Source of the DNA: Eledone cirrhosa
Taxonomy: Eukaryota
Direction: 5' to 3'
NCBI GenBank assembly: GCA_964016885.1
Contig: OZ024745.1
Coordinates: forward strand, 48,236,001 to 48,300,000
DNA length: 64,000 nucleotides
Both the position numbers and the translations under genes were made by a program. Positions 1 to 40,934 of this stretch are shown here, piece by piece (the first letter of the stretch is position 1; every line of letters begins with the position of its first letter). The notes beneath the pieces are model-generated. The model worked only from the letters and a program-made list of their open reading frames with translations, made no database searches and was not told the origin of the DNA.

Positions 1-3000
1 GACACCAACTGCTTTAGTAACCACTCATGACACCAACTGCTTTAGTAACCACTCATGACACCAACTGCTTTAGTAACCACTCATGACACCAACTGCTTTA
101 GTAACCATTCCTGACACCAACTGCTTTAGTAACCACTCATGACACCAACTGCTTTAGTAACCACTCATGACACCAACTGCTTTAGTAACCACTCTTGACA
201 CCAACTGCTTTAGTAACCACTCATGACACCAACTGCTTTAGTAACCACTCTTGACACCAACTGCTTTAGTAACCACTCTTGACACCAACTGCTTTAGTAA
301 CCACTCATGACACCAACTGCTTTAGTAACCACTCATGACACCAACTGCTTTAGTAACCACTCATGACACCAACTGCTTTAGTAACCACTCATGACACCAA
401 CTGCTTTAGTAACCACTCTTGACACCAACTGCTTTAGTAACCACTCTTGACACCAATTGCTTTAGTAACCACTCATGACACCAACTGCTTTAGTAACCAC
501 TCTTGACACCAACTGCTTTAGTAACCACTCATGACACCAACTGCTTTAGTAACCACTCATGACACCAACTGCTTTAGTAACCACTCATGACACCAACTGC
601 TTTAGTAACCACTCATGACACCAACTGCTTTAGTAACCACTCCTGACACCAACTGCTTTAGTAACCACTCATGACACCAACTGCTTTAGTAACCACTCAT
701 GACACCAACTGCTTTAGTAACCACTCATGACACCAACTGCTTTAGTAACCATTCCTGACACCAACTGCTTTAGTAACCACTCATGACACCAACTGCTTTA
801 GTAACCACTCATGACACCAACTGCTTTAGTAACCACTCCTGACACCAACTGCTTTAGTAACCACTCATGATACCAACTGCTTTAGTAACCACTCATGACA
901 CCAACTGCTTTAGTAACCACTCATGACACCAACTGTTTTAGTAACCACTCATGACACCAACTGCTTTAGTAACCACTCCTGACACCAACTGCTTTAGTAA
1001 CCACTCATGACACCAACTGCTTTAGTAACCACTCCTGACACCAACTGCTTTAGTAACTACTCATGACACCAACTGCTTTAGTAACCACTCCTGACACCAA
1101 CTGCTTTAGTAACCACTCATGACAACAACTGCTTTAGTAACCATTCCTGACACCAACTGCTTTAGTAACCACTCCTGACACCAACTGCTTTAGTAACCAC
1201 TCATGACACCAACTGCTTTAGTAACCACTCATGACACCAACTGCTTTAGTAACCATTCCTGACACCAACTGCTTTAGTAACCACTCATGACACCAACTGC
1301 TTTAGTAACCACTCATGACACCAACTGCTTTAGTAACCACTCATGACACCAACTGCTTTAGTAACCACTCATGACACCAACTGCTTTAGTAACCACTCAT
1401 GACACCAACTGCTTTAGTAACCACTCCTGACACCAACTGCTTTAGTAACGACTCATGACACCAACTGCTTTAGTAACCACTCATGACACCAACTGCTTTA
1501 GTAACCATTCCTGACACCAACTGCTTTAGTAACCACTCATGACAACAACTGCTTTAGTAACCATTCCTGCACCAACTGCTTTAGTAACCACTCATGACAC
1601 CAACTGCTTTAGTAACCATTCCTGACACCAACTGCTTTAGTAACCACTCCTGACACCAACTGCTTTAGTAACCACTCATGACACCAACTGCTTTAGTAAC
1701 CACTCATGACACCAACTGCTTTAGTAACCACTCCTGACACCAACTGCTTTAGTAACCATTCCTGACACCAACTGCTTTAGTAACCACTCATGACACCAAC
1801 TGCTTTAGTAACCACTCATGACACCAACTGCTTTAGTAACCACTCATGACACCAACTGCTTTAGTAACCACTCATGACACCAACTGCTTTAGTAACCACT
1901 CCTGACACCAACTGCTTTAGTAACCACTCCTGACACCAACTGCTTTAGTAACCACTCATGACACCAACTGCTTTAGTAACCACTCATGACACCAACTGCT
2001 TTAGTAACCATTCCTGACACCAACTGCTTTAGTAACCACTCATGACACCAACTGCTTTAGTAACCATTCCTGACACCAACTGCTTTAGTAACCATTCCTG
2101 ACACCAACTGCTTTAGTAACCACTCATGACACCAACTGCTTTAGTAACCATTCCTGACACCAACTGCTTTAGTAACCATTCCTGACACCAACTGCTTTAG
2201 TAACCATTCCTGACACCAACTGCTTTAGTAACCACTCATGACACCAACTGCTTTAGTAACCACTCATGACACCAACTGCTTTAGTAACCATTCCTGACAC
2301 CAACTGCTTTCGTAACCACTCATGACACCAACTGCTTTAGTAACCACTCATGACACCAACTGCTTTAGTAACCACTCCTGACACCAACTGCTTTAGTAAC
2401 CACTCATGATACCAACTGCTTTAGTAACCACTCATGACACCAACTGCTTTAGTAACCACTCATGACACCAACTGCTTTAGTAACCACTCATGACACCAAC
2501 TGCTTTAGTAACCACTCATGACACCAACTGCTTTAGTAACCACTCATGACACCAACTGTTTTAGTAACCACTCATGACACCAACTGCTTTAGTAACCACT
2601 CATGACACCAACTGCTTTAGTAACCACTCATGACACCAACTGCTTTAGTAACCACTCATGACACCAACTGCTTTAGTAACCACTCATGACACCAACTGCT
2701 TTAGTAACCATTCCTGACACTAACTGCTTTAGTAACCACTCCTGACACCAACTGCTTTAGTAACCACTCATGACACCAACTGCTTTAGTAACCACTCATG
2801 ATACCATCTGCTTTAGTAACCACTCATGACACCAACTGCTTTAGTAACCATTCCTGACACCAACTGCTTTAGTAACCACTCCTGACACCAACTGCTTTAG
2901 TAACCACTCATGACACCAACTGCTTTAGTAACCACTCATGATACCATCTGCTTTAGTAACCACTCATGACACCAACTGCTTTAGTAACCATTCCTGACAC

Positions 3001-6000
3001 CAACTGCTTTAGTAACCACTCCTGACACCAACTGCTTTAGTAACCACTCATGACACCAACTGCTTTAGTAACCATTCCTGACACCAACTGCTTTAGTAAC
3101 CACTCCTGACACCAACTGCTTTAGTAACCACTCCTGACACCAACTGCTTTAGTAACCACTCATGACACCAACTGCTTTAGTAACCACTCATGACACCAAC
3201 TGCTTTAGTAACCACTCATGACACCAACTGCTTTAGTAACCACTCATGACACCAACTGTTTTAGTAACCACTCATGACACCAACTGCTTTAGTAACCACT
3301 CATGACACCAACTGCTTTAGTAACCACTCCTGACACCAACTGCTTTAGTAACCACTCATGACACCAACTGCTTTAGTAACCACTCCTGACACCAACTGCT
3401 TTAGTAACCACTCATGAGACCAACTGCTTTAGTAACCATTCCTGACACCAACTGCTTTAGTAACCACTCCTGACACCAACTGCTTTAGTAACCACTCATG
3501 ACACCAACTGCTTTAGTAACCACTCCTGACACCAACTGCTTTAGTAACCATTCCTGACACCAACTGCTTTAGTAACCACTCATGACACCAACTGCTTTAG
3601 TAACCACTCATGACACCAACTGCTTTAGTAACCACTCATGACACCAACGGCTTTAGTAACCACTCATGACACCAACTGCTTTAGTAACCACTCATGACAC
3701 CAACTGCTTTAGTAACCACTCCTGACACCAACTGCTTTAGTAACCACTCCTGACACCAACTGCTTTAGTAACCACTCCTGACACCAACTGCTTTAGTAAC
3801 CACTCATGACACCAACTGCTTTAGTAACCACTCATGACACCAACTGCTTTAGTAACCATTCCTGACACCAACTGCTTTAGTAACCACTCATGACACCAAC
3901 TGCTTTAGTAACCATTCCTGACACCAACTGCTTTAGTAACCACTCATGACACCAACTGCTTTAGTAACCACTCATGACACCAACTGCTTTAGTAACCACT
4001 CATGACACCAACTGCTTTAGTAACCACTCCTGACACCAACTGCTTTAGTAACCACTCATGATACCAACTGCTTTAGTAACCACTCATGACACCAACTGCT
4101 TTAGTAACCACTCATGACACCAACTGCTTTAGTAACCACTCATGACACCAACTGCTTTAGTAACCACTCATGACACCAACTGTTTTAGTAACCACTCATG
4201 ACACCAACTGCTTTAGTAACCACTCATGACACCAACTGCTTTAGTAACCACTCATGACACCAACTGCTTTAGTAACCACTCATGACACCAACTGCTTTAG
4301 TAACCATTCCTGACACCAACTGCTTTAGTAACCACTCCTGACACCAATTGCTTTAGTAACCACTCATGACACCAACTGCTTTAGTAACCACTCATGACAC
4401 CAACTGCTTTAGTAACCATTCCTGACACCAACTGCTTTAGTAACCACTCATGACACCAACTGCTTTAGTAACCACTCATGACACCAACTGCTTTAGTAAC
4501 CACTCATGACACCAACTGCTTTAGTAACCACTCATGACACCAACTGCTTTAGTAACCACTCATGATACCAACTGCTTTAGTAACCACTCATGACACCAAC
4601 TGCTTTAGTAACCACTCATGACACCAACTGTTTTAATAACCACTCATGACACCAACTGCTTTAGTAACCACTCCTGACACCAACTGCTTTAGTAACCACT
4701 CATGACACCAACTGCTTTAGTAACCACTCATGACACCAACTGCTTTAGTAACCATTCCTGACACCAACTGCTTTAGTAACCACTCATGACACCAACTGCT
4801 TTAGTAACCACTCATGACACCAACTGCTTTAGTAACCACTCATGACACCAACTGCTTTAGTAACCATTCCTGACACCAACTGCTTTAGTAACCACTCCTG
4901 ACACCAATTGCTTTAGTAACCACTCATGACACCAACTGCTTTAGTAACCACTCATGACACCAACTGCTTTAGTAACCATTCCTGACACCAACTGCTTTAG
5001 TAACCACTCATGACACCAACTGCTTTAGTAACCACTCATGACACCAACTGCTTTAGTAACCACTCATGACACCAACTGCTTTAGTAACCACTCATGACAC
5101 CAACTGCTTTAGTAACCACTCATGATACCAACTGCTTTAGTAACCACCAACTGCTTTAGTAACCACTCATGACACCAACTGCTTTAGTAACCACTCCTGA
5201 CACCAACTGCTTTAGTAACCACTCATGACACCAACTGCTTTAGTAACCATTCCTGACACCAACTGCTTTAGTAACCACTCATGACACCAACTGCTTTAGT
5301 AACCACTCCTGACACCAACTGCTTTAGTAACCACTACTGACACCAACTGCTTTAGTAACCACTCATGACACCAACTGCTTTAGTAACCACTCATGACACC
5401 AACTGCTTTAGTAACCACTCATGACACCAACTGCTTTAGTAACCACTCATGACACCAACTGCTTTAGTAACCATTCCTGACACCAACTGCTTTAGTAACC
5501 ACTCCTGACACCAACTGCTTTAGTAACCATTCCTGCACTAACTGCTTTAGTAACCACTCATGACACCAACTGCTTTAGTAACCATTCCTGCACTAACTGC
5601 TTTAGTAACCACTCCTGACACCAACTGCTTTAGTAACCATTCCTGCACTAACTGCTTTAGTAACCACTCCTGACACCAACTGCTTTAGTAACCATTCCTG
5701 CACCAACTGCTTTAGTAACCACTCATGACACCAACTGCTTTAGTAACCATTCCTGACACCAACTGCTTTAGTAACCACTCATGACACCAACTGCTTTAGT
5801 AACCACTCATGACACCAACTGCTTTAGTAACCACTCATGACACCAACTGCTTTAGTAACCATTCCTGACACCAACTGCTTTAGTAACCACTCCTGACACC
5901 AACTGCTTTAGTAACCATTCCTGCACTAACTGCTTTAGTAACCACTCATGACACCAACTGCTTTAGTAACCATTCCTGACACCAACTGCTTTAGTAACCA

Positions 6001-9000
6001 CTCATGACACCAACTGCTTTAGTAACCACTCATGACACCAACTGCTTTAGTAACCACTCATGACACCAACTGCTTTAGTAACCATTCCTGACACTAACTG
6101 CTTTAGTAACCATTCCTGACACCAACTGCTTTAGTAACCACTCATGACACCAACTGCTTTAGTAACCACTACTGACACCAGCTGCTTTAGTAACCACTCA
6201 TGACACCAACTGCTTTAGTAACCACTCCTGACACCAACTGCTTTAGTAACCACTCATGACACCAACTGCTTTAGTAACCACAACTGACACCAACTGCTTT
6301 AGTAACCACTCATGACACCAACTGCTTTAGTAACCATTCCTGCACTAACTGCTTTAGTAACCACTCATGACACCAACTGCTTTAGTAACCATTCCTGACA
6401 CCAACTGCTTTAGTAACCACTCCTGACACCAACTGCTTTAGTAACCATTCCTGCACCAACTGCTTTAGTAACCACTCCTGACACCAACTGCTTTAGTAAC
6501 CACTCCTGACACCAACTGCTTTAGTAACCACTCATGACACCAACTGCTTTAGTAACCACTCATGACACCAACTGCTTTAGTAACCACTCCTGACACCAAC
6601 TGCTTTAGTAACCACTCATGACACCAACTGCTTTAGTAACCACTCCTGACACCAACTGCTTTAGTAACCACTCATGACACCAACTGCTTTAGTAACCATT
6701 CCTGACACCAACTGCTTTAGTAACCACTCATGACACCAACTGCTTTAGTAACCACTCCTGACACCAACTGCTTTAGTAACCACTACTGACACCAACTGCT
6801 TTAGTAACCACTCATGACACCAACTGCTTTAGTAACCACTCATGACACCAACTGCTTTAGTAACCACTCATGACACCAACTGCTTTAGTAACCACTCATG
6901 ACACCAACTGCTTTAGTAACCATTCCTGACACCAACTGCTTTAGTAACCACTCCTGACACCAACTGCTTTAGTAACCATTCCTGCACTAACTGCTTTAGT
7001 AACCACTCATGACACCAACTGCTTTAGTAACCATTCCTGCACTAACTGCTTTAGTAACCACTCCTGACACCAACTGCTTTAGTAACCATTCCTGCACCAA
7101 CTGCTTTAGTAACCACTCATGACACCAACTGCTTTAGTAACCACTCCTGACACCAACTGCTTTAGTAACCACTCATGACACCAACTGCTTTAGTAACCAC
7201 TCATGACACCAACTGCTTTAGTAACCACTCATGACACCAACTGCTTTAGTAACCATTCCTGACACCAACTGCTTTAGTAACCACTCCTGACACCAACTGC
7301 TTTAGTAACCATTCCTGCACTAACTGCTTTAGTAACCACTCATGACACCAACTGCTTTAGTAACCATTCCTGACACCAACTGCTTTAGTAACCACTCATG
7401 ACACCAACTGCTTTAGTAACCACTCATGACACCAACTGCTTTAGTAACCACTCATGACACCAACTGCTTTAGTAACCACTCATGACACCAACTGCTTTAG
7501 TAACCATTCCTGACACCAACTGCTTTAGTAACGACTCCTGACACCAACTGCTTTAGTAACCATTCCTGCACTAACTGCTTTAGTAACCACTCATGACACC
7601 AACTGCTTTAGTAACCATTCCTGACACCAACTGCTTTAGTAACCATTCCTGCACTAACTGCTTTAGTAACCATTCCTGACACCAACTGCTTTAGTAACCA
7701 CTCATGACACCAACTGCTTTAGTAACCACTCATGACACCAACTGCTTTAGTAACCATTCCTGACACCAACTGCTTTAGTAACCATTCCTGACACCAACTG
7801 CTTTAGTAACCATTCCTGACACCAACTGCTTTAGTAACCATTCCTGCACTAACTGCGTTAGTAACCACTCATGACACCAACTGCTTTAGTAACCACTCAT
7901 GACACCAACTGCTTTAGTAACCACTCATGACACCAACTGCTTTAGTAACCATTCCTGACACCAACTGCTTTAGTAACCATTCCTGACACCAAATGCTTTA
8001 GTAACCATTCCTGACACCAACTGCTTTAGTAACCACTCATGACACCAACTGCTTTAGTAACCACTCATGACACCAACTGCTTTAGTAACCATTCCTGCAC
8101 TAACTGCTTTAGTAACCATTCCTGACACCAACTGCTTTAGTAACCACTCCTGACACCAACTGCTTTAGTAACCATTCCTGACACCAACTGCTTTAGTAAC
8201 CATTCCTGCACTAACTGCTTTAGTAACCACTCATGACACCAACTGCTTTAGTAACCACTCCTGACACCAACTGCTTTAGTAACCACTCATGACACCAACT
8301 GCTTTAGTAACCATTCCTGACACCAACTGCTTTAGTAACCATTCCTGCACTAACTGCTTTAGTAACCACTCATGACACCAACTGCTTTAGTAACCACTCA
8401 TGACACCAACTGCTTTAGTAACCACTCATGACACCAACTGCTTTAGTAACCATTCCTGACACCAACTGCTTTAGTAACCATTCCTGACACCAACTGCTTT
8501 AGTAACCATTCCTGACACCAACTGCTTTAGTAACCACTCATGACACCAACTGCTTTAGTAACCACTCATGACACCAACTGCTTTAGTAACCATTCCTGCA
8601 CTAACTGCTTTAGTAACCATTCCTGACACCAACTGCTTTAGTAACCATTCCTGACACCAACTGCTTTAGTAACCACTCATGACACCAACTGCTTTAGTAA
8701 CCACTCATGACACCAACTGCTTTAGTAACCACTCATGACACCAACTGCTTTAGTAACCACTCATGACACCAACTGCTTTAGTAACCATTCCTGACACCAA
8801 CTGCTTTAGTAACCACTCCTGACACCAACTGCTTTAGTAACCATTCCTGCACTAACTGCTTTAGTAACCACTCATGACACCAACTGCTTTAGTAACCACT
8901 CCTGACACCAACTGCTTTAGTAACCACTCATGACACCAACTGCTTTAGTAACCATTCCTGACACCAACTGCTTTAGTAACCATTCCTGACACCAACTGCT

Positions 9001-12000
9001 TTAGTAACCATTCCTGACACCAATTGCTTTAGTAACCACTCATGACACCAACTGCTTTAGTAACCACTCATGACACCAACTGCTTTAGTAACCATTCCTG
9101 CACTAACTGCTTTAGTAACCATTCCTGACACCAACTGCTTTAGTAACCACTCCTGACACCAACTGCTTTAGTAACCACTCCTGACACCAACTGCTTTAGT
9201 AACCATTCCTGCACTAACTGCTTTAGTAACCACTCATGACACCAACTGCTTTAGTAACCACTCCTGACACCAACTGCTTTAGTAACCATTCCTGACACCA
9301 ACTGCTTTAGTAACCACTCATGACACCAACTGATTTAGTAACCACTACTGACACCAACTGCTTTAGTAACCACTCCTGACACCAACTGCTTTAGTAACCA
9401 CTCTTGACACCAACTGCTTTAGTAACCACTACTGACACCAACTGCTTTAGTAACCATTCATGACACCAACTGCTTTAGTAACCATTCCTGACACCAACTG
9501 CTTTAGTAACCACTCCTGACACCAACTGCTTTAGTAACCACTCCTGACACCAACTGCTTTAGTAACCACTCCTGACACCAACTGCTTTAGTAACCACTCC
9601 TGACACCAACTGCTTTAGTAACCACTCCTGACACCAACTGCTTTAGTAACCACTCCTGACACCAACTGCTTTAGTAACCACTCCTGACACCAACTGCTTT
9701 AGTAACCACTCCTGACACCAACTGCTTTAGTAACCACTCCTGACACCAACTGCTTTAGTAACCACTCCTGACACCAACTGCTTTAGTAACCACTCCTGAC
9801 ACCAACTGCTTTAGTAACCACTCCTGACACCAACTGCTTTAGTAACCACTCCTGACACCAACTGCTTTAGTAACCACTACTGACACCAACTGCTTTAGTA
9901 ACCATTCATGACACCAACTGCTTTAGTAACCACTCCTGACACCAACTGCTTTAGTAACCATTCATGACACCAACTGCTTTAGTAACCACTCCTGACACCA
10001 ACTGCTTTAGTAACCACTCATGACACCAACTGCTTTAGTAACCACTCATGACACCAACTGCTTTAGTAACCATTCATGACACCAACTGCTTTAGTAACCA
10101 CTACTGACACCAACTGCTTTAGTAACCACTACTGACACCAACTGCTTTAGTAACCACTCCTGACACCAACTGCTTTAGTAACCATTCCTGCACCAACTGC
10201 TTTAGTAACCACTCCTGACACCAACTGCTTTAGTAACCACTCCTGACACCAACTGCTTTAGTAACCACTCCTGACACCAACTGCTTTAGTAACCACTCAT
10301 GACACCAACTGCTTTAGTAACCACTCATGACACCAACTGCTTTAGTAACCACTCATGACACCAACTGCTTTAGTAACCATTCATGACACCAACTGCTTTA
10401 GTAACCACTCATGACACCAACTACTTTAGTAACCACTCATGACACCAACTACTTTAGTAACCACTCCTGACACCAACTGCTTTAGTAACCACTCCTGACA
10501 CCAACTGCTTTAGTAACCACTCCTGACACCAACTGCTTTAGTAACCACTCCTGACACCAACTGCTTTAGTAACCACACCTGACACCAACTGCTTTAGTAA
10601 CCACTCATGACACCAACTGCTTTAGTAACCACTCATGACACCAACTGCTTTAGTAACCACTCATGACACCAACTGCTTTAGTAACCACTCATGACACCAA
10701 CTGCTTTAGTAACCACTCATGACACCAACTGCTTTAGTAACCACTCATGACACCAACTGCTTTAGTAACCACTCATGACACCAACTGCTTTAGTAACCAC
10801 TCTTGACACCAACTGCTTTAGTAACCACTCCTGACACCAACTGCTTTAGTAACCACTCCTGACACCAACTGCTTTAGTAACCACTCCTGACACCAACTGC
10901 TTTAGTAACCACTCCTGACACCAACTGCTTTAGTAACCACTCCTGACACCAACTGCTTTAGTAACCACTCCTGACACCAACTGCTTTAGTAACCACTCCT
11001 GACACCAACTGCTTTAGTAACCACTCCTGACACCAACTGCTTTAGTAACCACTCCTGACACCAACTGCTTTAGTAACCACTCATGACACCAACTGCTTTA
11101 GTAACCACTCATGACACCAACTGCTTTAGTAACCACTCCTGACACCAACTGCTTTAGTAACCACTCCTGACACCAACTGCTTTAGTAACCACTCCTGACA
11201 CCAACTGCTTTAGTAACCACTCCTGACACCAACTGCTTTAGTAACCACTCCTGACACCAACTGCTTTAGTAACCACTCCTGACACCAACTGCTTTAGTAA
11301 CCACTCATGACACCAACTGCTTTAGTAACCACTCCTGACACCAACTGCTTTAGTAACCACTCCTGACACCAACTGCTTTAGTAACCACTCCTGACACCAA
11401 CTGCTTTAGTAACCACTCATGACACCAACTGCTTTAGTAACCATTCCTGCACTAACTGCTTTAGTAACCACTCATGACACCAACTGCTTTAGTAACCATT
11501 CCTGACACCAACTGCTTTAGTAACCACTCTTGACACCAACTGCTTTAGTAACCACTCTTGACACCAACTGCTTTAGTAACCATTCCTGACACCAACTGCT
11601 TTAGTAACCATTCCTGACACCAACTGCTTTAGTAACCATTCCTGACACCAACTGCTTTAGTAACCACTCCTGACACCAACTGCTTTAGTAACCACTCCTG
11701 ACACCAACTGCTTTAGTAACCACTCATGACACCAACTGCTTTAGTAACCATTCCTGCACCAACTGCTTTAGTAACCACTCATGACACCAACTGCTTTAGT
11801 AACCACTCCTGACACCAACAGCTTTAGTAACCACTCATGACACCAACTGCTTTAGTAACCATTCCTGACACCAACTGCTTTAGTAACCACTCCTGACACC
11901 AACTGCTTTAGTAACCATTCCTGCACCAACTGCTTTAGTAACCACTCCTGACACCAACTGCTTTAGTAACCACTCCTGACACCAACTGCTTTAGTAACCA

Positions 12001-27000: not shown

Positions 27001-30000
27001 GACACCAACTGCTTTAGTAACCACTCCTGACACCAACTGCTTTAGTAACCATTCCTGCACTAACTGCTTTAGTAACCACTCATGACACCAACTGCTTTAG
27101 TAACCACTCATGACACCAACTGCTTTAGTAACCACTCATGACACCAACTGCTTTAGTAACCATTCCTGACACCAACTGCTTTAGTAACCATTCCTGACAC
27201 CAACTGCTTTAGTAACCATTCCTGACACCAACTGCTTTAGTAACCACTCATGACACCAACTGCTTTAGTAACCATTCCTGCACTAACTGCTTTAGTAACC
27301 ATTCCTGACACCAACTGCTTTAGTAACCACTCCTGACACCAACTGCTTTAGTAACCACTCATGACACCAACTGCTTTAGTAACCACTCATGACACCAACT
27401 GCTTTAGTAACCATTCCTGACACCAACTGCTTTAGTAACCACTCCTGACACCAACTGCTTTAGTAACCATTCCTGCACTAACTGCTTTAGTAACCACTCA
27501 TGACACCAACTGCTTTAGTAACCACTCCTGACACCAACTGCTTTAGTAACCACTCATGACACCAACTGCTTTAGTAACCATTCCTGACACCAACTGCTTT
27601 AGTAACCATTCCTGCACTAACTGCTTTAGTAACCACTCATGACACCAACTGCTTTAGTAACCACTCATGACACCAACTGCTTTAGTAACCACTCATGACA
27701 CCAACTGCTTTAGTAACCATTCCTGACACCAACTGCTTTAGTAACCATTCCTGACACCAACTGCTTTAGTAACCATTCCTGACACCAACTGCTTTAGTAA
27801 CCACTCATGACACCAACTGCTTTAGTAACCACTCATGACACCAACTGCTTTAGTAACCATTCCTGCACTAACTGCTTTAGTAACCATTCCTGACACCAAC
27901 TGCTTTAGTAACCACTCATGACACCAACTGCTTTAGTAACCACTCATGACACCAACTGCTTTAGTAACCACTCATGACACCAACTGCTTTAGTAACCATT
28001 CCTGACACCAACTGCTTTAGTAACCACTCCTGACACCAACTGCTTTAGTAACCATTCCTGCACTAACTGCTTTAGTAACCACTCATGACACCAACTGCTT
28101 TAGTAACCACTCCTGACACCAACTGCTTTAGTAACCACTCATGACACCAACTGCTTTAGTAACCATTCCTGACACCAACTGCTTTAGTAACCATTCCTGA
28201 CACCAACTGCTTTAGTAACCATTCCTGACACCAACTGCTTTAGTAACCACTCATGACACCAACTGCTTTAGTAACCACTCATGACACCAACTGCTTTAGT
28301 AACCATTCCTGACACCAACTGCTTTAGTAACCATTCCTGACACCAACTGCTTTAGTAACCACTCATGACACCAACTGCTTTAGTAACCACTCATGACACC
28401 AACTGCTTTAGTAACCATTCCTGCACTAACTGCTTTAGTAACCACTCCTGACACCAACTGCTTTAGTAACCATTCCTGACACCAACTGCTTTAGTAACCA
28501 CTCATGACACCAACTGCTTTAGTAACCACTCATGACACCAACTGCTTTAGTAACCACTACTGACACCAACTGCTTTAGTAACCACTCCTGACACCAACTG
28601 CTTTAGTAACCACTCTTGACACCAACTGCTTTAGTAACCACTACTGACACCAACTGCTTTAGTAACCATTCATGACACCAACTGCTTTAGTAACCATTCC
28701 TGACACCAACTGCTTTAGTAACCACTCCTGACACCAACTGCTTTAGTAACCACTCCTGACACCAACTGCTTTAGTAACCACTCCTGACACCAACTGCTTT
28801 AGTAACCACTCCTGACACCAACTGCTTTAGTAACCACTCCTGACACCAACTGCTTTAGTAACCACTCCTGACACCAACTGCTTTAGTAACCACTCCTGAC
28901 ACCAACTGCTTTAGTAACCACTACTGACACCAACTGCTTTAGTAACCACTCCTGACACCAACTGCTTTAGTAACCACTCCTGACACCAACTGCTTTAGTA
29001 ACCACTCCTGACACCAACTGCTTTAGTAACCACTCCTGACACCAACTGCTTTAGTAACCACTCCTGACACCAACTGCTTTAGTAACCATTCCTGACACCA
29101 ACTGCTTTAGTAACCACTCCTGACACCAACTGCTTTAGTAACCACTCCTGACACCAACTGCTTTAGTAACCACTACTGACACCAACTGCTTTAGTAACCA
29201 CTCATGACACCAACTGCTTTAGTAACCACTCCTGACACCAACTGCTTTAGTAACCACTCCTGACACCAACTGCTTTAGTAACCACTCCTGACACCAACTG
29301 CTTTAGTAACCACTCCTGACACCAACTGCTTTAGTAACCACTCCTGACACCAACTGCTTTAGTAACCACTCCTGACACCAACTGCTTTAGTAACCACTCC
29401 TGACACCAACTGCTTTAGTAACCATTCCTGACACCAACTGCTTTAGTAACCACTCCTGACACCAACTGCTTTAGTAACCACTCCTGACACCAACTGCTTT
29501 AGTAACCACTCCTGACACCAACTGCTTTAGTAACCACTCCTGACACCAACTGCTTTAGTAACCACTCCTGACACCAACTGCTTTAGTAACCACTCCTGAC
29601 ACCAACTGCTTTAGTAACCACTCCTGACACCAACTGCTTTAGTAACCACTCCTGACACCAACTGCTTTAGTAACCACTCCTGACACCAACTGCTTTAGTA
29701 ACCACTCCTGACACCAACTGCTTTAGTAACCACTCCTGACACCAACTGCTTTAGTAACCATTCCTGACACCAACTGCTTTAGTAACCACTCCTGACACCA
29801 ACTGCTTTAGTAACCACTACTGACACCAACTGCTTTAGTAACCACTACTGACACCAACTGCTTTAGTAACCACTCATGACACCAACTGCTTTAGTAACCA
29901 CTCCTGACACCAACTGCTTTAGTAACCACTCCTGACACCAACTGCTTTAGTAACCACTCCTGACACCAACTGCTTTAGTAACCATTCCTGACACCAACTG

Positions 30001-33000
30001 CTTTAGTAACCACTCCTGACACCAACTGCTTTAGTAACCACTCCTGACACCAACTGCTTTAGTAACCACTACTGACACCAACTGCTTTAGTAACCACTCC
30101 TGACACCAACTGCTTTAGTAACCACTCCTGACACCAACTGCTTTAGTAACCACTCCTGACACCAACTGCTTTAGTAACCACTCCTGACACCAACTGCTTT
30201 AGTAACCACTACTGACACCAACTGCTTTAGTAACCATTCATGACACCAACTGCTTTAGTAACCACTCCTGACACCAACTGCTTTAGTAACCACTCATGAC
30301 ACCAACTGCTTTAGTAACCACTCCTGACACCAACTGCTTTAGTAACCACTCATGACACCAACTGCTTTAGTAACCATTCATGACACCAACTGCTTTAGTA
30401 ACCACTACTGACACCAACTGCTTTAGTAACCATTCATGACACCAACTGCTTTAGTAACCATTCATGACACCAACTGCTTTAGTAACCACTCATGACACCA
30501 ACTGCTTTAGTAACCACTCATGACACCAACTGCTTTAGTAACCACTCCTGACACCAACTGCTTTAGTAACCATTCATGACACCAACTGCTTTAGTAACCA
30601 CTCATGACACCAACTGCTTTTGTAACCACTCCTGACACCAACTGCTTTAGTAACCACTCCTGACACCAACTGCTTTAGTAACCACTCATGACACCAACTG
30701 CTTTAGTAACCACTCATGACACCAACTGCTTTAGTAACCACTCATGACACCAACTGCTTTAGTAACCACTCATGACACCAACTGCTTTAGTAACCATTCC
30801 TGACACCAACTGCTTTAGTAACCACTCATGACACCAACTGCTTTAGTAACCATTCATGACACCAACTGCTTTAGTAACCACTCATGACACCAACTGCTTT
30901 AGTAACCATTCATGACACCAACTGCTTTAGTAACCACTCATGACACCAACTGCTTTAGTAACCACTCATGACACCAACTGCTTTAGTAACCATTCATGAC
31001 ACCAACTGCTTTAGTAACCATTCCTGACACCAACTGCTTTAGTAACCACTCATGACACCAACTGCTTTAGTAACCATTCCTGACACCAACTGCTTTAGTA
31101 ACCACTCATGACACCAACTGCTTTAGTAACCACTCCTGACACCAACTGCTTTAGTAACCACTCATGACACCAACTGCTTTAGTAACCACTCATGACACCA
31201 ACTGCTTTAGTAACCACTCATGACACCAACTGCTTTAGTAACCACTCCTGACACCAACTGCTTTAGTAACCACTCCTGACACCAACTGCTTTAGTAACCA
31301 CTCCTGACACCAACTGCTTTAGTAACCACTCCTGACACCAACTGCTTTAGTAACCATTCCTGACACCAACTGCTTTAGTAACCACTCCTGACACCAACTG
31401 CTTTAGTAACCACTCCTGACACCAACTGCTTTAGTAACCACTCCTGACACCAACTGCTTTAGTAACCACTCCTGACACCAACTGCTTTAGTAACCACTCC
31501 TGACACCAACTGCTTTAGTAACCACTCCTGACACCAACTGCTTTAGTAACCACTCCTGACACCAACTGCTTTAGTAACCACTCCTGACACCAACTGCTTT
31601 AGTAACCATTCCTGACACCAACTGCTTTAGTAACCACTCCTGACACCAACTGCTTTAGTAACCACTACTGACACCAACTGCTTTAGTAACCACTACTGAC
31701 ACCAACTGCTTTAGTAACCACTACTGACACCAACTGCTTTAGTAACCACTCATGACACCAACTGCTTTAGTAACCACTCCTGACACCAACTGCTTTAGTA
31801 ACCACTCCTGACACCAACTGCTTTAGTAACCACTCCTGACACCAACTGCTTTAGTAACCATTCCTGACACCAACTGCTTTAGTAACCACTCCTGACACCA
31901 ACTGCTTTAGTAACCACTCCTGACACCAACTGCTTTAGTAACCACTCCTGACACCAACTGCTTTAGTAACCACTCCTGACACCAACTGCTTTAGTAACCA
32001 CTCCTGACACCAACTGCTTTAGTAACCACTCCTGACACCAACTGCTTTAGTAACCATTCCTGACACCAACTGCTTTAGTAACCACTCCTGACACCAACTG
32101 CTTTAGTAACCACTACTGACACCAACTGCTTTAGTAACCACTACTGACACCAACTGCTTTAGTAACCACTCATGACACCAACTGCTTTAGTAACCACTCC
32201 TGACACCAACTGCTTTAGTAACCACTCCTGACACCAACTGCTTTAGTAACCACTCCTGACACCAACTGCTTTAGTAACCATTCCTGACACCAACTGCTTT
32301 AGTAACCACTCCTGACACCAACTGCTTTAGTAACCACTCCTGACACCAACTGCTTTAGTAACCACTACTGACACCAACTGCTTTAGTAACCACTCCTGAC
32401 ACCAACTGCTTTAGTAACCACTCCTGACACCAACTGCTTTAGTAACCACTCCTGACACCAACTGCTTTAGTAACCACTCCTGACACCAACTGCTTTAGTA
32501 ACCACTACTGACACCAACTGCTTTAGTAACCATTCATGACACCAACTGCTTTAGTAACCACTCCTGACACCAACTGCTTTAGTAACCACTCATGACACCA
32601 ACTGCTTTAGTAACCACTCCTGACACCAACTGCTTTAGTAACCACTCATGACACCAACTGCTTTAGTAACCATTCATGACACCAACTGCTTTAGTAACCA
32701 CTACTGACACCAACTGCTTTAGTAACCATTCATGACACCAACTGCTTTAGTAACCATTCATGACACCAACTGCTTTAGTAACCACTCATGACACCAACTG
32801 CTTTAGTAACCACTCATGACACCAACTGCTTTAGTAACCACTCCTGACACCAACTGCTTTAGTAACCATTCATGACACCAACTGCTTTAGTAACCACTCA
32901 TGACACCAACTGCTTTTGTAACCACTCCTGACACCAACTGCTTTAGTAACCACTCCTGACACCAACTGCTTTAGTAACCACTCATGACACCAACTGCTTT

Positions 33001-34330
33001 AGTAACCACTCATGACACCAACTGCTTTAGTAACCACTCATGACACCAACTGCTTTAGTAACCACTCATGACACCAACTGCTTTAGTAACCATTCCTGAC
33101 ACCAACTGCTTTAGTAACCACTCATGACACCAACTGCTTTAGTAACCATTCATGACACCAACTGCTTTAGTAACCACTCATGACACCAACTGCTTTAGTA
33201 ACCATTCATGACACCAACTGCTTTAGTAACCACTCATGACACCAACTGCTTTAGTAACCACTCATGACACCAACTGCTTTAGTAACCATTCATGACACCA
33301 ACTGCTTTAGTAACCATTCCTGACACCAACTGCTTTAGTAACCACTCATGACACCAACTGCTTTAGTAACCATTCCTGACACCAACTGCTTTAGTAACCA
33401 CTCATGACACCAACTGCTTTAGTAACCACTCCTGACACCAACTGCTTTAGTAACCACTCCTGACACCAACTGCTTTAGTAACCACTCATGACACCAACTG
33501 CTTTAGTAACCACTCCTGACACCAACTGCTTTAGTAACCACTCATGACACCAACTGCTTTAGTAACCATTCATGACACCAACTGCTTTAGTAACCACTCC
33601 TGACACCAACTGCTTTAGTAACCACTCATGACACCAACTGCTTTAGTAACCACTCCTGACACCAACTGCTTTAGTAACCACTCCTGACACCAACTGCTTT
33701 AGTAACCACTCATGACACCAACTGCTTTAGTAACCACTCATGACACCAACTGCTTTAGTAACCACTCCTGCACCAACTGCTTTAGTAACCACTCATGACA
33801 CCAACTGCTTTAGTAACCACTCATGACACCAACTGCTTTAGTAACCACTCCTGACACCAACTGCTTTAGTAACCACTAATGACACCAACTGCTTTAGTAA
33901 CCATTCATGACACCAACTGCTTTAGTAACCACTCCTGACACCAACTGCTTTAGTAACCACTCATGACACCAACTGCTTTAGTAACCACTCATGACACCAA
34001 CTGCTTTAGTAACCACTCATGACACCAACTGCTTTAGTAACCACTCCTGACACCAACTGCTTTAGTAACCACTCATGACACCAACTGCTTTAGTAACCAT
34101 TCATGACACCAACTGCTTTAGTAACCACTCCTGACACCAACTGCTTTAGTAACCACTAATGACACCAACTGCTTTAGTAACCACTCCTGACACCAACTGC
34201 TTTAGTAACCACTCCTGACACCAACTGCTTTAGTAACCACTCATGACACCAACTGCTTTAGTAACCACTCATGACACCAACTGCTTTAGTAACCACTCCT
34301 GCACCAACTGCTTTAGTAACCACTCATGAC
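1..34330. repeat. 28-bp tandem satellite, consensus GACACCAACTGCTTTAGTAACCACTCAT, about 1,230 units, continuing beyond the left edge
   Basis: Seen directly. Variation is mostly in the last 6 nt (ACTCAT, ACTCCT, ATTCCT, ACTCTT, ACTACT, ATTCAT), plus 27-bp deletion variants (TCCTGCACCAAC, TCCTGCACTAAC). The unit has stop codons on both strands and is not a multiple of 3, so it is non-coding. Confidence 0.99.
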
Positions 34331-34349
34331 CCTAACCCTACCCTTACCC

Positions 34350-35190
34350 CACCACCACCATCATCATGATCCCCTCCACCATCATCATGATCCCCTCCAC
34401 CATCATCATGATCCCCTCCACCATCATCATGATCCCCACCACCATCATCATGATCCCCTCCACCACCATGATCCCCTCCACCATCATCATCATGATCCCC
34501 ACCACCATCATCATGATCCCCACCACCATCATGATCCCCACCACCATCATCATGATCCCCACCACCATCATCATGATCCCCACCACCATCATCATGATCC
34601 CCTCCACCATCATCATGATCCCCTCCACCATCATCATGATCCCCTCCACCATCATCATGATCCCCTCCACCATCATCATGATCCCCTCCACCATCATCAT
34701 GATCCCCACCACCATCATCATGATCCCCTCCACCACCATCATCATGATCCCCTCCACCACCATCATCATGATCCCCTCCACCACCATGATCCCCACCACC
34801 ATCATCATGATCCCCACCACCATCATCATGATCCCCACCACCATCATCATGATCCCCTCCACCATCATCATCATGATCCCCTCCACCATCATCATGATCC
34901 CCTCCACCATCATCATGATCCCCTCCACCATCATCATGATCCCCACCACCATCATCATGATCCCCTCCACCATCATCATGATCCCCACCACCACCATCAT
35001 CATGGTCCCCTCCACCATCATCATGGTCCCCTCCACCATCATCATGATCCCCACCACCATCATCATGATCCCCTCCACCATCATCATGATCCCCACCACC
35101 ATCATCATGATCCCCTCCACCACCATCATCATGATCCCCTCCACCACCATCATCATGATCCCCTCCACCATCATCATAATCATTATCACC
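34350..35190. repeat. 18-24 bp CAT/CAC-rich minisatellite (core CATCATCATGATCCCC[T/A]CCAC), probably an expanded (CAT)n retroposon tail
   Basis: Tandem units differ by whole trinucleotides. The array runs directly into a minus-strand retroposon 3' end (ATCACCGTTTGATGTCTATTTTCTATGCTTGCATGAGTTAG). Confidence 0.93.
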
Positions 35191-35450
35191 GTTTGATGTC
35201 TATTTTCTATGCTTGCATGAGTTAGAAGGCTGTCACAATTGAGCTCTGACTGGTCATTCTGTTTGGGGCTTGGTTTCTGTGGCTAGATGCCCTTCCTAAT
35301 GACAACTACTTTACAGTATGTACTGGTAGTATTTTATTGTGATATAAGCACTATCCTATTACAGTGTAGACAGAGTACTTTTGTCATGGTACCAGCACAA
35401 CCATCTTACAGGTGAACTGGATGCTTTTCACCATGGCACAAACACTTCCA
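35186..35450 (-). mobile_element. Degenerate 3' UTR/tail of the RTE-LINE/SINE family
   Basis: Contains GGCTAGATGCCCTTCCTAATGACAACTACTTTACAGT and ~45-bp internal sub-repeats. Similar copies occur at 45060-45425, 55730-56040 and 58981-59220. Confidence 0.75.
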
Positions 35451-35518
35451 TCTTATCAACAAAACAGAATATTGAAATATTACTGTATCTAACTATCAAT
35501 CTTATAATCTTTTACTAG

Positions 35519-35645
35519 GTCCTATTTTCAATGAGAAAATGAACCAAAATATAACTATTCAAAATGGTGACTGCTTTTGTCCAGATTTCATTAAAGGAAC
35601 AGAATATTTGATTATGACCAATAAATATTACGAGACTGAGTCTGG
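35519..35645 (+). CDS. Penultimate coding exon of an NTR/C345C-domain protein (complement C3/C4/C5-like): (G)PIFNEKMNQNITIQNGDCFCPDFIKGTEYLIMTNKYYETES(G)
   Basis: Branch-like CTAAC at ~35489, acceptor TTTTACTAG|, 127-nt open exon (phase 1 in, phase 2 out), strong donor |GTAAGT at 35646. CxCP....G.EYLIM is the NTR/C345C core motif. Confidence 0.8.
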
Positions 35646-35822
35646 GTAAGTATTCCAGTAATTTCAAATTAATTTTAATTCTCTTAAGTTTGTAATTTAT
35701 GCTTTAAACCTTTTGATAAGAACCGCTAGATATCACCCCTTGTTCTATGGTACAAAGCTTTTTGTTTTAAAATATTTATAATTGTCTGAAAACCTTCCAT
35801 CATAATTTTTATGTTGTTTTAA

Positions 35823-36028
35823 CCCTTTAGCATTTAAACCGGCTGTATCTGGCCAGAATTTTCATATCTTTCTTTTCAAACCGGCCATGACTGGCCATTC
35901 ATATCCATGTTAAGGTATTGTTCTCAAAATAAATAATATCAAAATCTCATAGATTCGATATTATGTGAGATAAAACCTTTACAATGAAAATAGAATAGTA
36001 AATATAGAGTAATATAAATGCTAATGGG
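35823..36028 (+). mobile_element. piggyBac-like MITE family A
   Basis: TTAA|CCCTTTAGCATTTA...TAAATGCTAATGGG|TTAA terminal inverted repeats with TTAA duplication. Other copies at 36689 and 43587. Confidence 0.85.
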
Positions 36029-36110
36029 TTAAACACAAGATTAATAATAAGAAAGTTAGTTACATTACTAAATCTTACCAAATTCTTGATTATTTGAAAA
36101 TCATATGCAG

Positions 36111-36455
36111 AGTTTCAGGAAACAAAGCATAAAGGTCTGACTTCACTCGTGCTGCAATGATTCTTATGAAACTCAGGCTTAAACCAACCACATCAGTTGT
36201 CAGGTCAAGAGTGCTTAAACTGTACGGTCAAATCAAAAGATCAACTCATGGTGTGAGTAAATTATGCCTAGAAGGAAAGTTGGCTGATAAGAGAAGCAGA
36301 GGTCGACAGCCAAAATGATGGCTTCACAATGTCAACTTATGGACTGGACTTGACTTTTCCTCTTTAAACTCTGCTGTTGGTGATGGAACTTTGTGGAGAA
36401 AAATATCTCATGTTGATGCGCAGTCTGCAACTGGCTGAGTTTAGCGTCTGGATAT
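36111..36455 (+). mobile_element. 5'-truncated RTE-clade LINE 3' end
   Basis: Translates to ...RVLKLYGQIKRS...CLEGKLADKRSRGRQPK*WLHNV..., the typical RTE C-terminal GKRSRGRP..RW motif. Flanked by an 8-bp direct repeat ATATGCAG (36103-36110, 36456-36463). Confidence 0.8.
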
Positions 36456-36688
36456 ATATGCAGTCTTCTATTAGAAATATGGTAATGAAGGGGTTAAACT
36501 GAATAACATTATGACATTTAGATTTAGATTAATAAATTATGGATGATTTAGATCCTACTATTGCTAATATGTGTTTTCTTGTGTAATGAGAATAATTTGG
36601 AGAAGTTAACCAATAAAATATTTTGTATTACATTTGATGTATTTGCCTTGCAGATCTCCACTAGTTTTACTGTATTTCTATAGTTTAA

Positions 36689-36895
36689 TCCTTTAGCATT
36701 TACATTACTTTATATTTACAATTGTATTTTTGTGGTAAAGGCTTTACCTCACATAATATCGAATCTATGAGATTTTGATGCTATTTATTTTGAGACAATA
36801 CCTTATCATTGGTATGAGTGGCCAGTTACAGCTGGTTTGAACAGAAAGAGGTGAGAAAATTCTGGCCGGATGTGGTCGGTTTAAATGCTAAAGGG
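36689..36895 (-). mobile_element. piggyBac-like MITE family A, inverted relative to the 35823 copy
   Basis: TTAA|TCCTTTAGCATTTA...TAAATGCTAAAGGG|TTAA. Internal sequence is the reverse complement of the 35823 copy. Confidence 0.85.
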
Positions 36896-37501
36896 TTAAT
36901 CTAGCCATGAAGTTTGTTACATTGTACTCTTCCCACTAAATTATAAATGTCTTTAGGGACATTCAAACATGATGGCATAAAAAACCTGTTGGAAATTATA
37001 ACAATCTTTTCTCCCTTCAAATTGTAAAAACCTTCTAAGTGATTAGTAGAATGATTCTGAATAGCTAGATCTACTCTGATGTTTCATACCTGGAGAACTT
37101 TAGCTTTTGACAACATTTAGCATGAAAGCTTCTATAAAAGTTACTTACTCTCTTGGGAGATCTCTATGAAACTATTCATACCTGTATACAATAGCGACAA
37201 GCATTTTAAGGCCATTTTTTCTGCTAAAGTAGGGATTAGCCTTGCAGGCTCAATTAGACTCATTGTGGAATCCTTTTTAAGACAATGTTTTATAGCCAGA
37301 TGCCTTTCCTGACACTAACCCTTTTAGTTGCCTCCTACAACATACAAGGATGTACTTCACAGTTGTGGTTTACATAAGAAAGATTATACGAACATGATAA
37401 ATGTTCGTATAATAGATCATGAAAATTTGAAGTTGGCAAAATAAATTCAAAAAGAAAAAGCAGAAGAAAATAAGGAAAAACCAGAATTAAATTAAATATA
37501 A

Positions 37502-37846
37502 TGGAGGCACATGGCTTAGTGGTTAGAGCACTGGGCTTGCAATCGAAAGGTTGTGAGTTCAATTCTCAGACCGGGTGATGTGTTGTTTCCTTGAGCAAGA
37601 CACTTTATTTCACATTGCTCCAGTTTACTCAGCTGTAGAAATGATATGATAGGGACTGGGGTCCATATCATTCCACTGCAAAGTGGTCGTGGAGGTGCCA
37701 CGGCAAAAAAGCACCCAGCACTCACTGTAAATGAGGTTGGTGTTAGGAAGGGTATCCAGCTGTAGAAATCAAGCCAGAATCAGTTCCTGTCCCACTCTTG
37801 CAAGCAGGGAAAAAGTGGACGTAAAATGAAATGATGATGATGATGA
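37502..37846 (+). mobile_element. tRNA-derived SINE with central conserved domain and RTE-type 3' tail ending (GAT)n
   Basis: A box TGGCTTAGTGG, B box GAGTTCAATTC, central TCCTTGAGCAAGACACTT...TTGCTCCAGT domain, tail GTTGGTGTTAGGAAGGGTATCCAGCTGTAGAAA...GATGATGAT. The matching empty site is at ~41355. Confidence 0.85.
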
Positions 37847-38651
37847 TAAAAGAAATTTCAATTTGTTATTTGATATTAACTACCAGGCATATGATGTAAA
37901 ATAGTTTACATGTCTTGTATCTAATATATCTTATAGAACAAACTTTTGTAAGTCTATAGTTTACAGTTCTTAAATATAATAACAAAATTTTGTAATTCTA
38001 TATTTTACAGTTCTCATATGTAATATAGTGTATGTATGTATGTATGTGTATATGTCGCCAAAAGGCTCTGGAATGGTGTGTCCTTGAGGAAAATGGATTT
38101 AATTTTTGAAATCTGTGTCCCAAGGAGAAGGTTTGGGGACATGTGGAGTTCAAAAAGAATAAAAGAACCCCACCCTCAAAAAAAAAGAAAAAGAAAAGGA
38201 TACTATCAATCATTGTTACTGTGACAATTTATGTAGTCTGGCTTTTATTGATTGTCTTCTGCATTCCTTCAATATGGCCTTATTATTCCATTCATCCATG
38301 CCATGAGCAGGGGGAGTTGTCACTATGAGGCAGAAAGTTGTCCTCACAGAGGTCACCTGAAGATACTCACACTAAAGTATACCACAAGCCATTGATACCA
38401 CTTCAACATACAGCTTAAATGAGTAATTTTCCATAGAAACAACCTTAGGGACAATCGATTATTCATGGGGATGGGCCCTGAGGAATAAATAATGTGATGA
38501 AGCATGGGGGAAACATGGTCTGACATGGAATAAAAAAAGATGAAAGAAAGGTATTCTATTGTGAAAATTGCCCAGTAACGATTAGATAGTCTGCTACAAA
38601 CTTTTGTAATTTGATTTTCATTAACAATATTTTTTCAAACATTTTTTTCAG

Positions 38652-38781
38652 ATACAAATTTCTAATTGACCGTTATGGAATGTTTATTAAAAGGAATAAT
38701 GATGTGAACAACATACGCTCCATCATAAATAGATTTGGCAAAAAAATCAGAGCTATAACAAACCTTTGCCATAAATGGTAA
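38652..38781 (+). CDS. Terminal coding exon of the NTR/C345C-domain protein: (G)YKFLIDRYGMFIKRNNDVNNIRSIINRFGKKIRAITNLCHKW*
   Basis: Acceptor TTTTTTTCAG| gives a phase-2 join with 35645 (GG|A = Gly). Frame is open to TAA at 38779-38781, with an amphipathic helix and C-terminal Cys as in NTR modules. ATTAAA at 38795. Confidence 0.72.
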
Positions 38782-39164
38782 AGATATGGATTTCATTAAA
38801 ATAATAATCTGCAACTGTCTGTATATATTTCTTTCAAATCTTTCATATACAATTTCTTCAAATTCACTATTTAATACTTTTTATTTCTCACTAAAGAAAA
38901 CATTTTAATTTAATTGTGTGATATTTATTTTTTATTGTTTTCAATTGTTAATAGATTCTGGAATATGTTCTTTTACATAATTGTATATAATAATTTATTA
39001 TACTGTCCTTATTTGTCTTTCAAAGGATTTTATATCATTCAGAAAAACACTGAGTTATCAAGACAAAATATGTATAAGTCTTACTTTTTTTTTAAAGATA
39101 TTAATTAAGACAAAAACTAAATCTAATGATGCATATGCAAATTTGATGTGGATGTACCATGGCC

Positions 39165-39470
39165 AAATGTTTAAGAAGTTCCAAATTAAGTCTCACTCTG
39201 TGGCATTTTGGGTGAGTGTCTTTTACCATAGCTTCAGGTCAACCCAAATTTTGTGAGTGAAATTGAGTAGACAGAATCTGTTTGGAAGTGCATCAGATGG
39301 ACTATACCTGTAACTCAAAGAGCCAGTCTTGTCATACACTATTTCATGCTGAATATCTCTCAGAATTATGTTAAGGGTGTATATGTCTGTGGAATACTCA
39401 ACTACTTGCATGTTAATTTAATAAGTAGGCCATATATTGACTGAATAACTGGAACACTTCATCATCAAAT
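39165..39470 (+). mobile_element. Degenerate SINE (same family as 60264)
   Basis: CTCACTCTGTGGCATTTTGGGTGAGTGTCTTTTACCATAGC resembles CCCACTGCGTGGCAAGTGTGTTTTACTGTAGCC at 60325. Confidence 0.5.
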
Positions 39471-39849
39471 ACAATGAAGATCCATTTAGTTGGTTTTAAC
39501 TTGTACATATTTGGGAATATAATTGGATGGTCATTACATTCAGTAAGCACAATTTTTGTCTAGTCTTTTTTTTTTCCTGATACTTTTTCTGTATCATTTA
39601 ACTCTATTGATATGATCTTATTGGCTGTTTTTTAAACTGAAGTAATATTTCTTTGTCAAGGTATACTGTTATTCCCTGTCTTGTGTATGATATCTTAGAT
39701 GTCTGACAGGGATATTATTGTTCTTTAAGCTATCTATAATAAAGCCCTTCATTCATCACACTATATATCCATGTGTTACTCAGCCCTTCATGATTGCTCC
39801 AGGGGGGAATTAGTGTAACATACAGAAACAATGCATTTAATTAATGGAA

Positions 39850-40630
39850 CCTATCCAATACAGATGACAACTTTGATACCAATCAAACCAGTTGTATCAA
39901 AGAGTTTTACACCTTGCAGTGATATTTGATGCCCCAGTGACAATAGGGGTCACAATTTAAATCATTCAAGCTGTTTGATGTGTTGCTTGGATATTGTCTA
40001 GGATACACAGCCATACAGGGCAATTGTATCAGTGACTGTCTAACATCTGGTAGACATGTTCATGCTTTTTGTGGTTCACCCCACAGGAGCACAGGCAACC
40101 AAATGACCAACTAGCTTTTACAGATTTCAACTGTTATTACCCTGTTCAGAGAATACTGAGAAAAAAAGGAAATCTCAAGCAATTTGAAAGAAACAACAAT
40201 AGCCAATTTTGGAGTATTGGGATTTTAGATAAAATCATTGTTGAGACTTATATAAATCAGGCTGAATTTTCATGTTGTCCAGATAAATGGAGGGTATAAA
40301 GGACCAAGAAGCTTAGGAAATTTATCAGCAATAATTTAAGAGTTAAAATTTGAATATGCTATGAGAGAATTATCATCAATAAACACTGTAAACAATGCCT
40401 TTTGGATTTGCTTCTGAAACACATTAGTCCATGTAGTATGTGCAGAGGTCCAGTCTGCATCTCATGTATATTCCTTGATCAAAATTATGCAGAGTATGGA
40501 TCTTATAACATATGTAAAGAAAACCATTTGACAAGTCAGATATCATGGCATGCCGTGGTTGTACATGGTACATGTTCAGTATGTATATGTGGAAGACTTA
40601 TGCATGATTTTATAAATTTCACACAATGAT
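39850..40630 (+). pseudogene. Heavily decayed piggyBac (PGBD-like) transposase remnant
   Basis: Broken frames give FKSFKLFDVLLGYCLGYTAIQG (like GIK.Y.LCD..TGY....IY.G), ILDKIIVETYI, and a Cys-rich end TCSVCICGRLMHDFINF. Recognised by eye only. Confidence 0.45.
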
Positions 40631-40934
40631 TGTTTTATAACAAACTGCTAAATTTTATATGAAGTGTGTTTAATAAATTTTTCAAACCTTCTCAGAATTT
40701 ACTTATTTTTTAATTGATTTCAAACTTTTCTATCTTTAGTTAGATAAGGTAAATTACTTGAACTTTTAAACTGAACATATCTCAAATAACTCTCATTAAA
40801 ACTTCACAATATAATCAATTAATTATTGCTAGGAACCTTATAAATATAATACACAAAAATATATAATAAAAAAGAAGAGAAAAAAACCATTAATTCAACA
40901 CTAAGTGCATCAATCAGTCACACACCATAGGGTC

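Follow-up and report, generated by a model that had tools for sequence, protein, structure and literature searches.

A locus-specific 28-bp repeat array fills a long intron of a putative C3 duplicate in an octopod genome

The locus described here raises the question of whether a tandem array of more than 34 kb can occupy an intron of a transcribed complement-like gene and, if so, whether that intron is of the gigantic kind. It lies in a 64,000-bp stretch of a 3.0-Gb genome (contig C5:48236001-48300000, hereafter the window; negative coordinates run to its left, 0 being the base preceding the window), and the proteins of this genome group with those of octopods by homology. The first-pass annotation, made from the letters of the window alone, had proposed that exons 35519-35645 and 38652-38781 encode the end of a C3-like immune gene and that the satellite preceding them fills a giant intron like those of the Drosophila Y-loops; as one check it had named transcript reads entering 35519 from an exon left of the window. 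Our analysis makes it probable that 28 bp of a dispersed repeat were amplified in place and now fill intron 35 of an intact octopod duplicate of C3, and that the resulting array is transcribed and removed with the intron as a neutral passenger. Complement component C5 is named as such throughout, to distinguish it from contig C5.

Joining the two exons in phase yielded the peptide predicted by the first-pass annotation. The first (127 nt) has the acceptor ...TTTTACTAG and the donor GTAAGT, and the second has the acceptor ...TTTTTCAG and a stop codon at 38779-81. In the data set X4 (88 million letters of contigs), a contig of 3,457 nt at a depth of 18.1 lay on 35510-35644 and 38651-40697 with adjoining record positions, and it contained the expected junction 35645/38652. 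An X4 contig of identical length and depth covered exactly the exon C5:48234117-48234185 (exon 35, 1.8 kb left of the window; a 197-bp stretch was examined), with loose ends that corresponded to the start of exon 35519 behind and the end of the previous exon before it; the predicted entry into 35519 from the left was thus observed. Because this contig joins three consecutive GT-AG introns, X4 is probably RNA; it was taken as such from the spliced contig alone, the library type being unrecorded. The DNA-like runs X1 and X2 were unspliced across exon 35. A retrocopy was considered as the source of the spliced contig and rejected as unlikely, because the exon region has a single full match in the assembly and X1 and X2 show no splicing there. 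The features concerned are as follows.

1..34330, plus strand, 28-bp minisatellite array of 1,238 copies (34,562 bp), which starts 231 bp before the window
1..35518, plus strand, window part of intron 35 (GT..AG, phase 1)
34355..35181, plus strand, second array with a 21-bp unit (39 copies)
35519..35645, plus strand, exon 36, middle of the predicted C345C/NTR domain (splice sites, Pfam match, X4 contig)
35646..38651, plus strand, intron 36, 3,006 bp, phase 2 (splice sites, X4 contig)
38652..38781, plus strand, exon 37, last coding exon, with the C-terminal helix, last Cys and stop (X4 contig)
38782..40697, plus strand, 3′ untranslated region, its extent being the reach of the X4 contig, which cannot fix the RNA end; AATAAA at 40672

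Intron 35 as a whole spans C5:48234186-48271518 (-1814 to 35518; 37,333 bp, GT..AG, phase 1), of which 93% is the 28-bp array and 95% tandem repeat overall. It had been predicted to be at least 35.5 kb long and almost all satellite; the satellite does fill the intron, but the intron is closed at 37,333 bp and the left end of the array lies only a short way outside the window. The earlier statement that transcription crosses more than 1,200 repeats agrees with the 1,238 copies between flanking exons joined in the X4 contig, and the absence of exons from 1-35518 agrees with a unit spacing of 19-30 throughout the array, in which no concealed upstream exon was found.

In length, intron 35 is about 60 times the corresponding intron (620 bp) of the canonical C3 gene on contig C18 of this genome, 21 times the median intron of its own gene (1.8 kb) and about 7 times the mean of 5.4 kb that an excerpt of PMC6279123 gives for O. 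minor. The first two of these ratios, and a transcript that crosses an intron consisting for 93% of one satellite, speak for a Y-loop-like gigantic intron, in which the array would be an obstacle that requires RNA-binding proteins or recursive splicing and that times or limits the output of an immune gene. However, gigantic introns measure hundreds of kb to Mb in the relevant portions of PMC11207136 and PMC6508621. Against that size, more than 1000 times typical, intron 35 has 37,333 bp, whereas the other mark of such introns, satellite filling with transcription through it, was found (93% one array; spliced contig). Within its own gene it is only second, since the introns measure 39,461, 37,333, 28,339 and 10,908 bp with the rest below 5.6 kb; intron 3 (C5:48117312-48156772, 39,461 bp) exceeds it, intron 1 has 28 kb, and the array takes up 18% of the gene span. 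It was also noticed that intron 3 contains a TA-rich simple-repeat array of 11.2 kb (C5:48136134-48147316, left of the window). The Y-loop introns of Drosophila (kl-3, kl-5) share with intron 35 a tandem-repeat filling that is transcribed through, but, as described in parts of PMC6508621 and PMC11207136, they are tens to a hundred times longer and built of shared simple satellites, whereas the octopod intron holds a private 28-mer. The proposed likeness to Y-loops was therefore not borne out, and intron 35 is long but not gigantic, with an ordinary private minisatellite inside.

Arrays of this kind are not confined to the locus. Five contigs were sampled at even spacing in 60 stretches of 10 kb each, regardless of whether these lie in introns; ten of the stretches (~17%; 95% interval 8-29%) were wholly inside tandem arrays, each with a different, unrelated unit of 16-101 bp (L062, L072, L074, L075, L079, L088, L091, L101, L107 and L119), and 22% of the sampled bases lay in arrays of at least 1 kb. 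The end of a long array fell within only about three samples, and, because these were so few, typical arrays may by rough estimate be several tens of kb long. Locus-specific intronic minisatellites (variable number of tandem repeats, VNTR) have a single-locus unit, interspersed variants, block duplications and an origin from a dispersed repeat. The present array shares these features and is long among them (34.6 kb); it belongs with this class, and its size is common in this genome.

The sense strand of the array contained no AATAAA, no ATTAAA and no AGGT, and every unit contains TTTAG and GT. With splice-site matrices built from the other 35 introns of the host gene, sites scoring no lower than the 10th percentile of true splice sites in this gene amounted to 0 of 1,243 AG and 2 of 1,245 GT in the array, as compared with 77 of 1,326 AG and 748 of 2,994 GT in intron 3. 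The array is thus quieter than ordinary intron DNA, because almost no AG or GT in it reaches real-site scores. Strong AG-GT ratchet points, which recursive splicing in the manner of a Y-loop intron would use, were absent from the array; four AGGT were present in the flanks of the intron, with acceptor scores of -16.8 to 0.0, and real acceptors of the gene mostly score 3-14. In addition, a dedicated binding protein is unlikely because the 28-bp unit is private. Taken with the size data, these results make the array very unlikely to be an obstacle of the Y-loop kind. Because poly(A) signals and AG-GT ratchets are absent from the sense strand and its splice sites are weak, no special machinery would be needed: the array would be read through, and intron 35 would probably be removed in one step, with the short exons found by exon definition. 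The array is likely a harmless passenger, given that intron 3 is longer still and that comparable arrays are common in the genome.

As to the origin of the array, the sequence that flanks it on the left, shortly before the window, is what remains of a dispersed repeat, and the 28-bp unit comes from the end of that repeat. The flank together with the first unit matched dispersed copies on many contigs, and each of the five copies inspected had a single unit-like stretch that was not followed by an array. The unit is private: a 26-letter part of it has 743 exact copies in the genome, every one of which lay in this region. Among 1,237 units, 41 variants were arranged in nested block duplications, and the longest exactly re-used run was 64 units (for example, at an offset of 318 units), as compared with 7-9 units in five shuffles. 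It is likely that the array expanded at its present site through successive duplications of blocks; a 28-bp piece at the end of the dispersed repeat would have been amplified to 1,238 copies by unequal exchange or slippage.

The block duplications also indicate an unstable array, and by this token it could be a length-variable, cis-acting VNTR, of which more copies would delay or lower the mRNA bearing the C345C tail or shift the balance towards a shorter form that stops ahead of the array. Upstream of the array, intron 35 contains two AATAAA, located 1,089 and 543 bp from the left end of the window, where a C345C-truncated form could end. The X4 contig, however, ran unbranched from the donor of exon 35 into 35519, and X4 yielded no other contig leaving that donor, an argument that is weak since contigs drop rare forms; we regard such a dial as quite unlikely. 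A misplaced array, or one of wrong length, deserves consideration because 34.6 kb of units matching at 95%, with exact repeats of up to 64 units (1.8 kb), may exceed single reads. Yet the 264-kb region (200 kb of it fetched upstream) is free of N, the flanking exons stand in transcript order and strand, the left flank continues into the unit as one copy of the dispersed repeat, and no other place in the assembly carries the unit. Thus an assembly artefact is most improbable; misplacement of the array is unlikely, although its length may be off.

The host gene, as modelled under guidance of its orthologues, has 37 exons over 190 kb (-149956 to 38781; start codon at C5:48086044) with an open frame of 1,447 aa, and all 36 introns, totalling 184 kb, are GT-AG. 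A search for homologues with the 43-aa NTR exon gave no candidate; PF01759, searched against the genome, detected two NTR loci elsewhere but not this one. The first-pass annotation had pointed to upstream exons with a thioester motif, GCGEQ; TED-domain exons were indeed present upstream on the same strand (-34 to -20 kb), but the motif is GSGEQ (exon C5:48201938-48202126). With a TED exon as the query, orthologues named CD109 antigen-like were found in Argonauta, O. bimaculoides and O. sinensis, and the host protein is 53-65% identical to its orthologues in Argonauta (P0001) and three Octopus species. Their automatic names conflict: those of O. vulgaris (CAI9718465-7) are called 'complement component 3', whereas XP_029658479.2 (O. 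sinensis) and XP_014770266.1 (O. bimaculoides) are called 'CD109 antigen-like'.

The C-terminal tail is predicted to be a C345C domain. Exon 35519 alone matched Pfam NTR (PF01759) with E=7.7e-4, so that the Pfam check proposed in the first-pass annotation succeeded in part, its 19.7 bits being below the cut-off of 21.9 and exon 38652 alone giving no Pfam NTR match. A profile of the tail (four cephalopod tails and the two window exons) matched human complement C5 at 1523-1626 (E=4.6e-5) and the 151-residue complement C5 fragment structure 1xwe (E=2.6e-4), seven of its eight matches being complement C5; in hhalign, it gave E=2.8e-4 with a C3/C4 alignment versus E=0.5 with an A2M/CD109 alignment. 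When the tail model of the Argonauta orthologue was searched with Foldseek, every row shown was a complement chain or a venom-factor homologue. Together, the Pfam, complement C5 profile and hhalign results uphold the proposal that these are NTR/C345C exons of a complement-family gene. The host tail contains nine cysteines. In X5, from a relative (organism B), 13 substitutions were listed within the 127-nt exon 35519-35645, which fits fast change of the C345C tail.

In a quick IQ-TREE tree of 21 proteins selected among named matches (midpoint root; P0008 limited to its first 1,330 aa), the host gene and three orthologues were sister to two cephalopod C3s within the complement clade, with support of 100 in the Shimodaira-Hasegawa-like approximate likelihood ratio test (SH-aLRT) for both this clade and the sistership; its rows held only two CD109, both long-branched and incomplete, and neither complement C5 nor snail sequences. 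The canonical C3 gene of this genome (G000:C18:37295000-37333000, minus strand) is the orthologue of Argonauta C3 (GAB1607029.1, P0004). It encodes 1,676 aa, carries GCGEQ, the catalytic His and anaphylatoxin-type cysteines, and has 38 introns (median 770 bp, sum 32.5 kb). Thirty of the 36 host introns, including the satellite intron, match introns of this gene in phase and within three alignment columns, 25 of them exactly; the last two, of phases 1 and 2, match its last two introns, as had been suggested for C3-family genes. With whole proteins, the O. sinensis orthologue scored 253 bits with human CD109 versus 239 with C3 and 232 with complement C5; only C3, complement C5 and a close homologue aligned into its tail. 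The database name CD109-like may be due to this slightly higher whole-protein score. An identity as CD109 was rejected, as the tree places the gene in the complement clade and the tail corresponds to C345C; in the tail, no glycosylphosphatidylinositol-signal was apparent (highest 19-residue hydropathy 0.17), and features of CD109 or iTEP were not found. Other thioester-protein loci were seen at C1:441.60 and 441.96 Mb, C4:281.60 and 281.98 Mb, C1:325.8 Mb, and C18:42.6 and 43.4 Mb; in the pieces fetched from them, GCGEQ occurred only at C4:281.98 Mb. The two C1 loci near 441 Mb had nearly equal exon-by-exon scores and are either a recent duplicate or an uncollapsed haplotype.

Comparison with the C18 gene and P0004 revealed what the host protein has lost: 1) GSGEQ replaces GCGEQ in the host and the three aligned orthologues; 2) Tyr stands at the column of the catalytic His, which is His in C18 C3, P0004, P0025, P0050, P0028 and P0026, P0029 having neither; 3) the linker/anaphylatoxin columns contain no Cys, as compared with eight in C18 C3 (cysteine counts served as the anaphylatoxin test, as Pfam ANATO fails on canonical P0004 too); 4) the MG4 columns hold 25 residues instead of 100, about 75 being deleted, and PF17789 (MG4) had no match in any of the five orthologues scanned; and 5) the first half of CUB holds 31 residues instead of 70. 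In canonical C3, the catalytic His lies about 110 residues beyond the thioester. Retained are a hydrophobic N-terminus, a tetrabasic site (RKKR near residue 545) and the C345C tail, the latter two shared with cephalopod C3. The octopod orthologues form one clade with the host and share GSGEQ, the Tyr, the lack of an MG4 match and the lack of ANATO cysteines. With GSGEQ in place of GCGEQ, and with the His, the anaphylatoxin cysteines and most of MG4 lost, the predicted protein appears to be a disarmed duplicate of C3, not C3 itself. The first-pass view of the host as a C3-like immune gene thus stands as to its sistership with cephalopod C3, but the gene is a disarmed duplicate, and an immune role would follow from descent only. 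The protein is predicted to be secreted, to be cut into two chains at the tetrabasic site and, with Ser for the thioester Cys and Tyr for the His, to be incapable of covalent attachment. The first half of TED is 85% identical to the Argonauta orthologue and 89% to that of O. sinensis, as compared with 45-64% and 50-75%, respectively, outside TED, where one stretch of 30 residues has 17%. Because this half is conserved without the residues for covalent attachment, a binding role may have been kept; the protein would probably bind targets or partners non-covalently, as is thought for complement C5 and the thioester-less C3-likes of snails.

Vertebrate complement C5 is a paralogue of C3 without the thioester that keeps the anaphylatoxin and MG4. 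The octopod tail profile matches its C345C best, but the host lacks both the anaphylatoxin and MG4 and groups with cephalopod C3. In the C3-likes of Biomphalaria glabrata, C345C is kept and the thioester mutated, and the anaphylatoxin was not recovered in two of three (PMC7016707, section 3.2); thioester-less snail C3-likes appear also, numbered differently, in an excerpt of PMC9363628. The octopod gene differs from them in keeping the tetrabasic site and in deleting about 75 of 100 MG4 residues. The thioester was likely lost separately in octopods and snails, because the octopod gene groups with cephalopod C3 (snail sequences being outside the tree). The kind is thus known from snails, and the octopod orthologues are already in databases under 'C3' or 'CD109-like'. 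In the literature searched, which left most subscription papers and supplements outside its scope, no paper was found on the octopod C3 paralogue or, likewise, on long private arrays in octopus assemblies.

Several points weigh against the picture of a passenger array in an intact C3 duplicate. Transcript support consists of one contig from one sample, of a study shared with the DNA runs, and the agreement with X4 covers the last three introns, the other 33 resting on homology and the open frame. The array length derives from one assembly, and the splice-site scores depend on a matrix from 35 introns of this one gene. The tree comes from a quick search. For the tail, the Argonauta model is weak (predicted local distance difference test, pLDDT, 59), and our own hidden Markov model of ten non-cephalopod C3 tails gave 8.3 bits versus 7.2 for the best of 200 shuffles. 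Finally, the function of the protein was deduced from losses only.

Elsewhere in the window, a 30-bp array (14 copies) lies at 45883-46304, and a 35-bp array begins at 63238, reaching 64000 and continuing past the right window end. An open frame of 334 codons on the minus strand (48968-49969) encodes a reverse-transcriptase fragment (PF00078, E=2.3e-17) and is likely a remnant of a long interspersed nuclear element.

Intron 35 indicates that an expressed gene can accommodate a private repeat of 35 kb and remain intact, and the 28-mer is usable as a single-locus probe for fluorescence in situ hybridization to nascent RNA. Transcript alignment with a limit of 20 kb, used for one octopus genome according to part of PMC9795677, would fail across introns of 28-39 kb. 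The intron is real and mostly ordinary, and the stripped C3 duplicate is of more interest than the intron. Besides a canonical C3, octopods have a second complement gene, the disarmed but conserved duplicate, and this bears on the wiring of cephalopod complement. More tentatively, it is possible that this second C3 was rebuilt by exon-level loss, with the thioester-side half of TED kept at 85-89% identity, into a non-covalent decoy, a regulator or a complement C5-like partner of the canonical C3, in a genome in which about one sixth of the DNA lies in long private arrays that genes may routinely read through.

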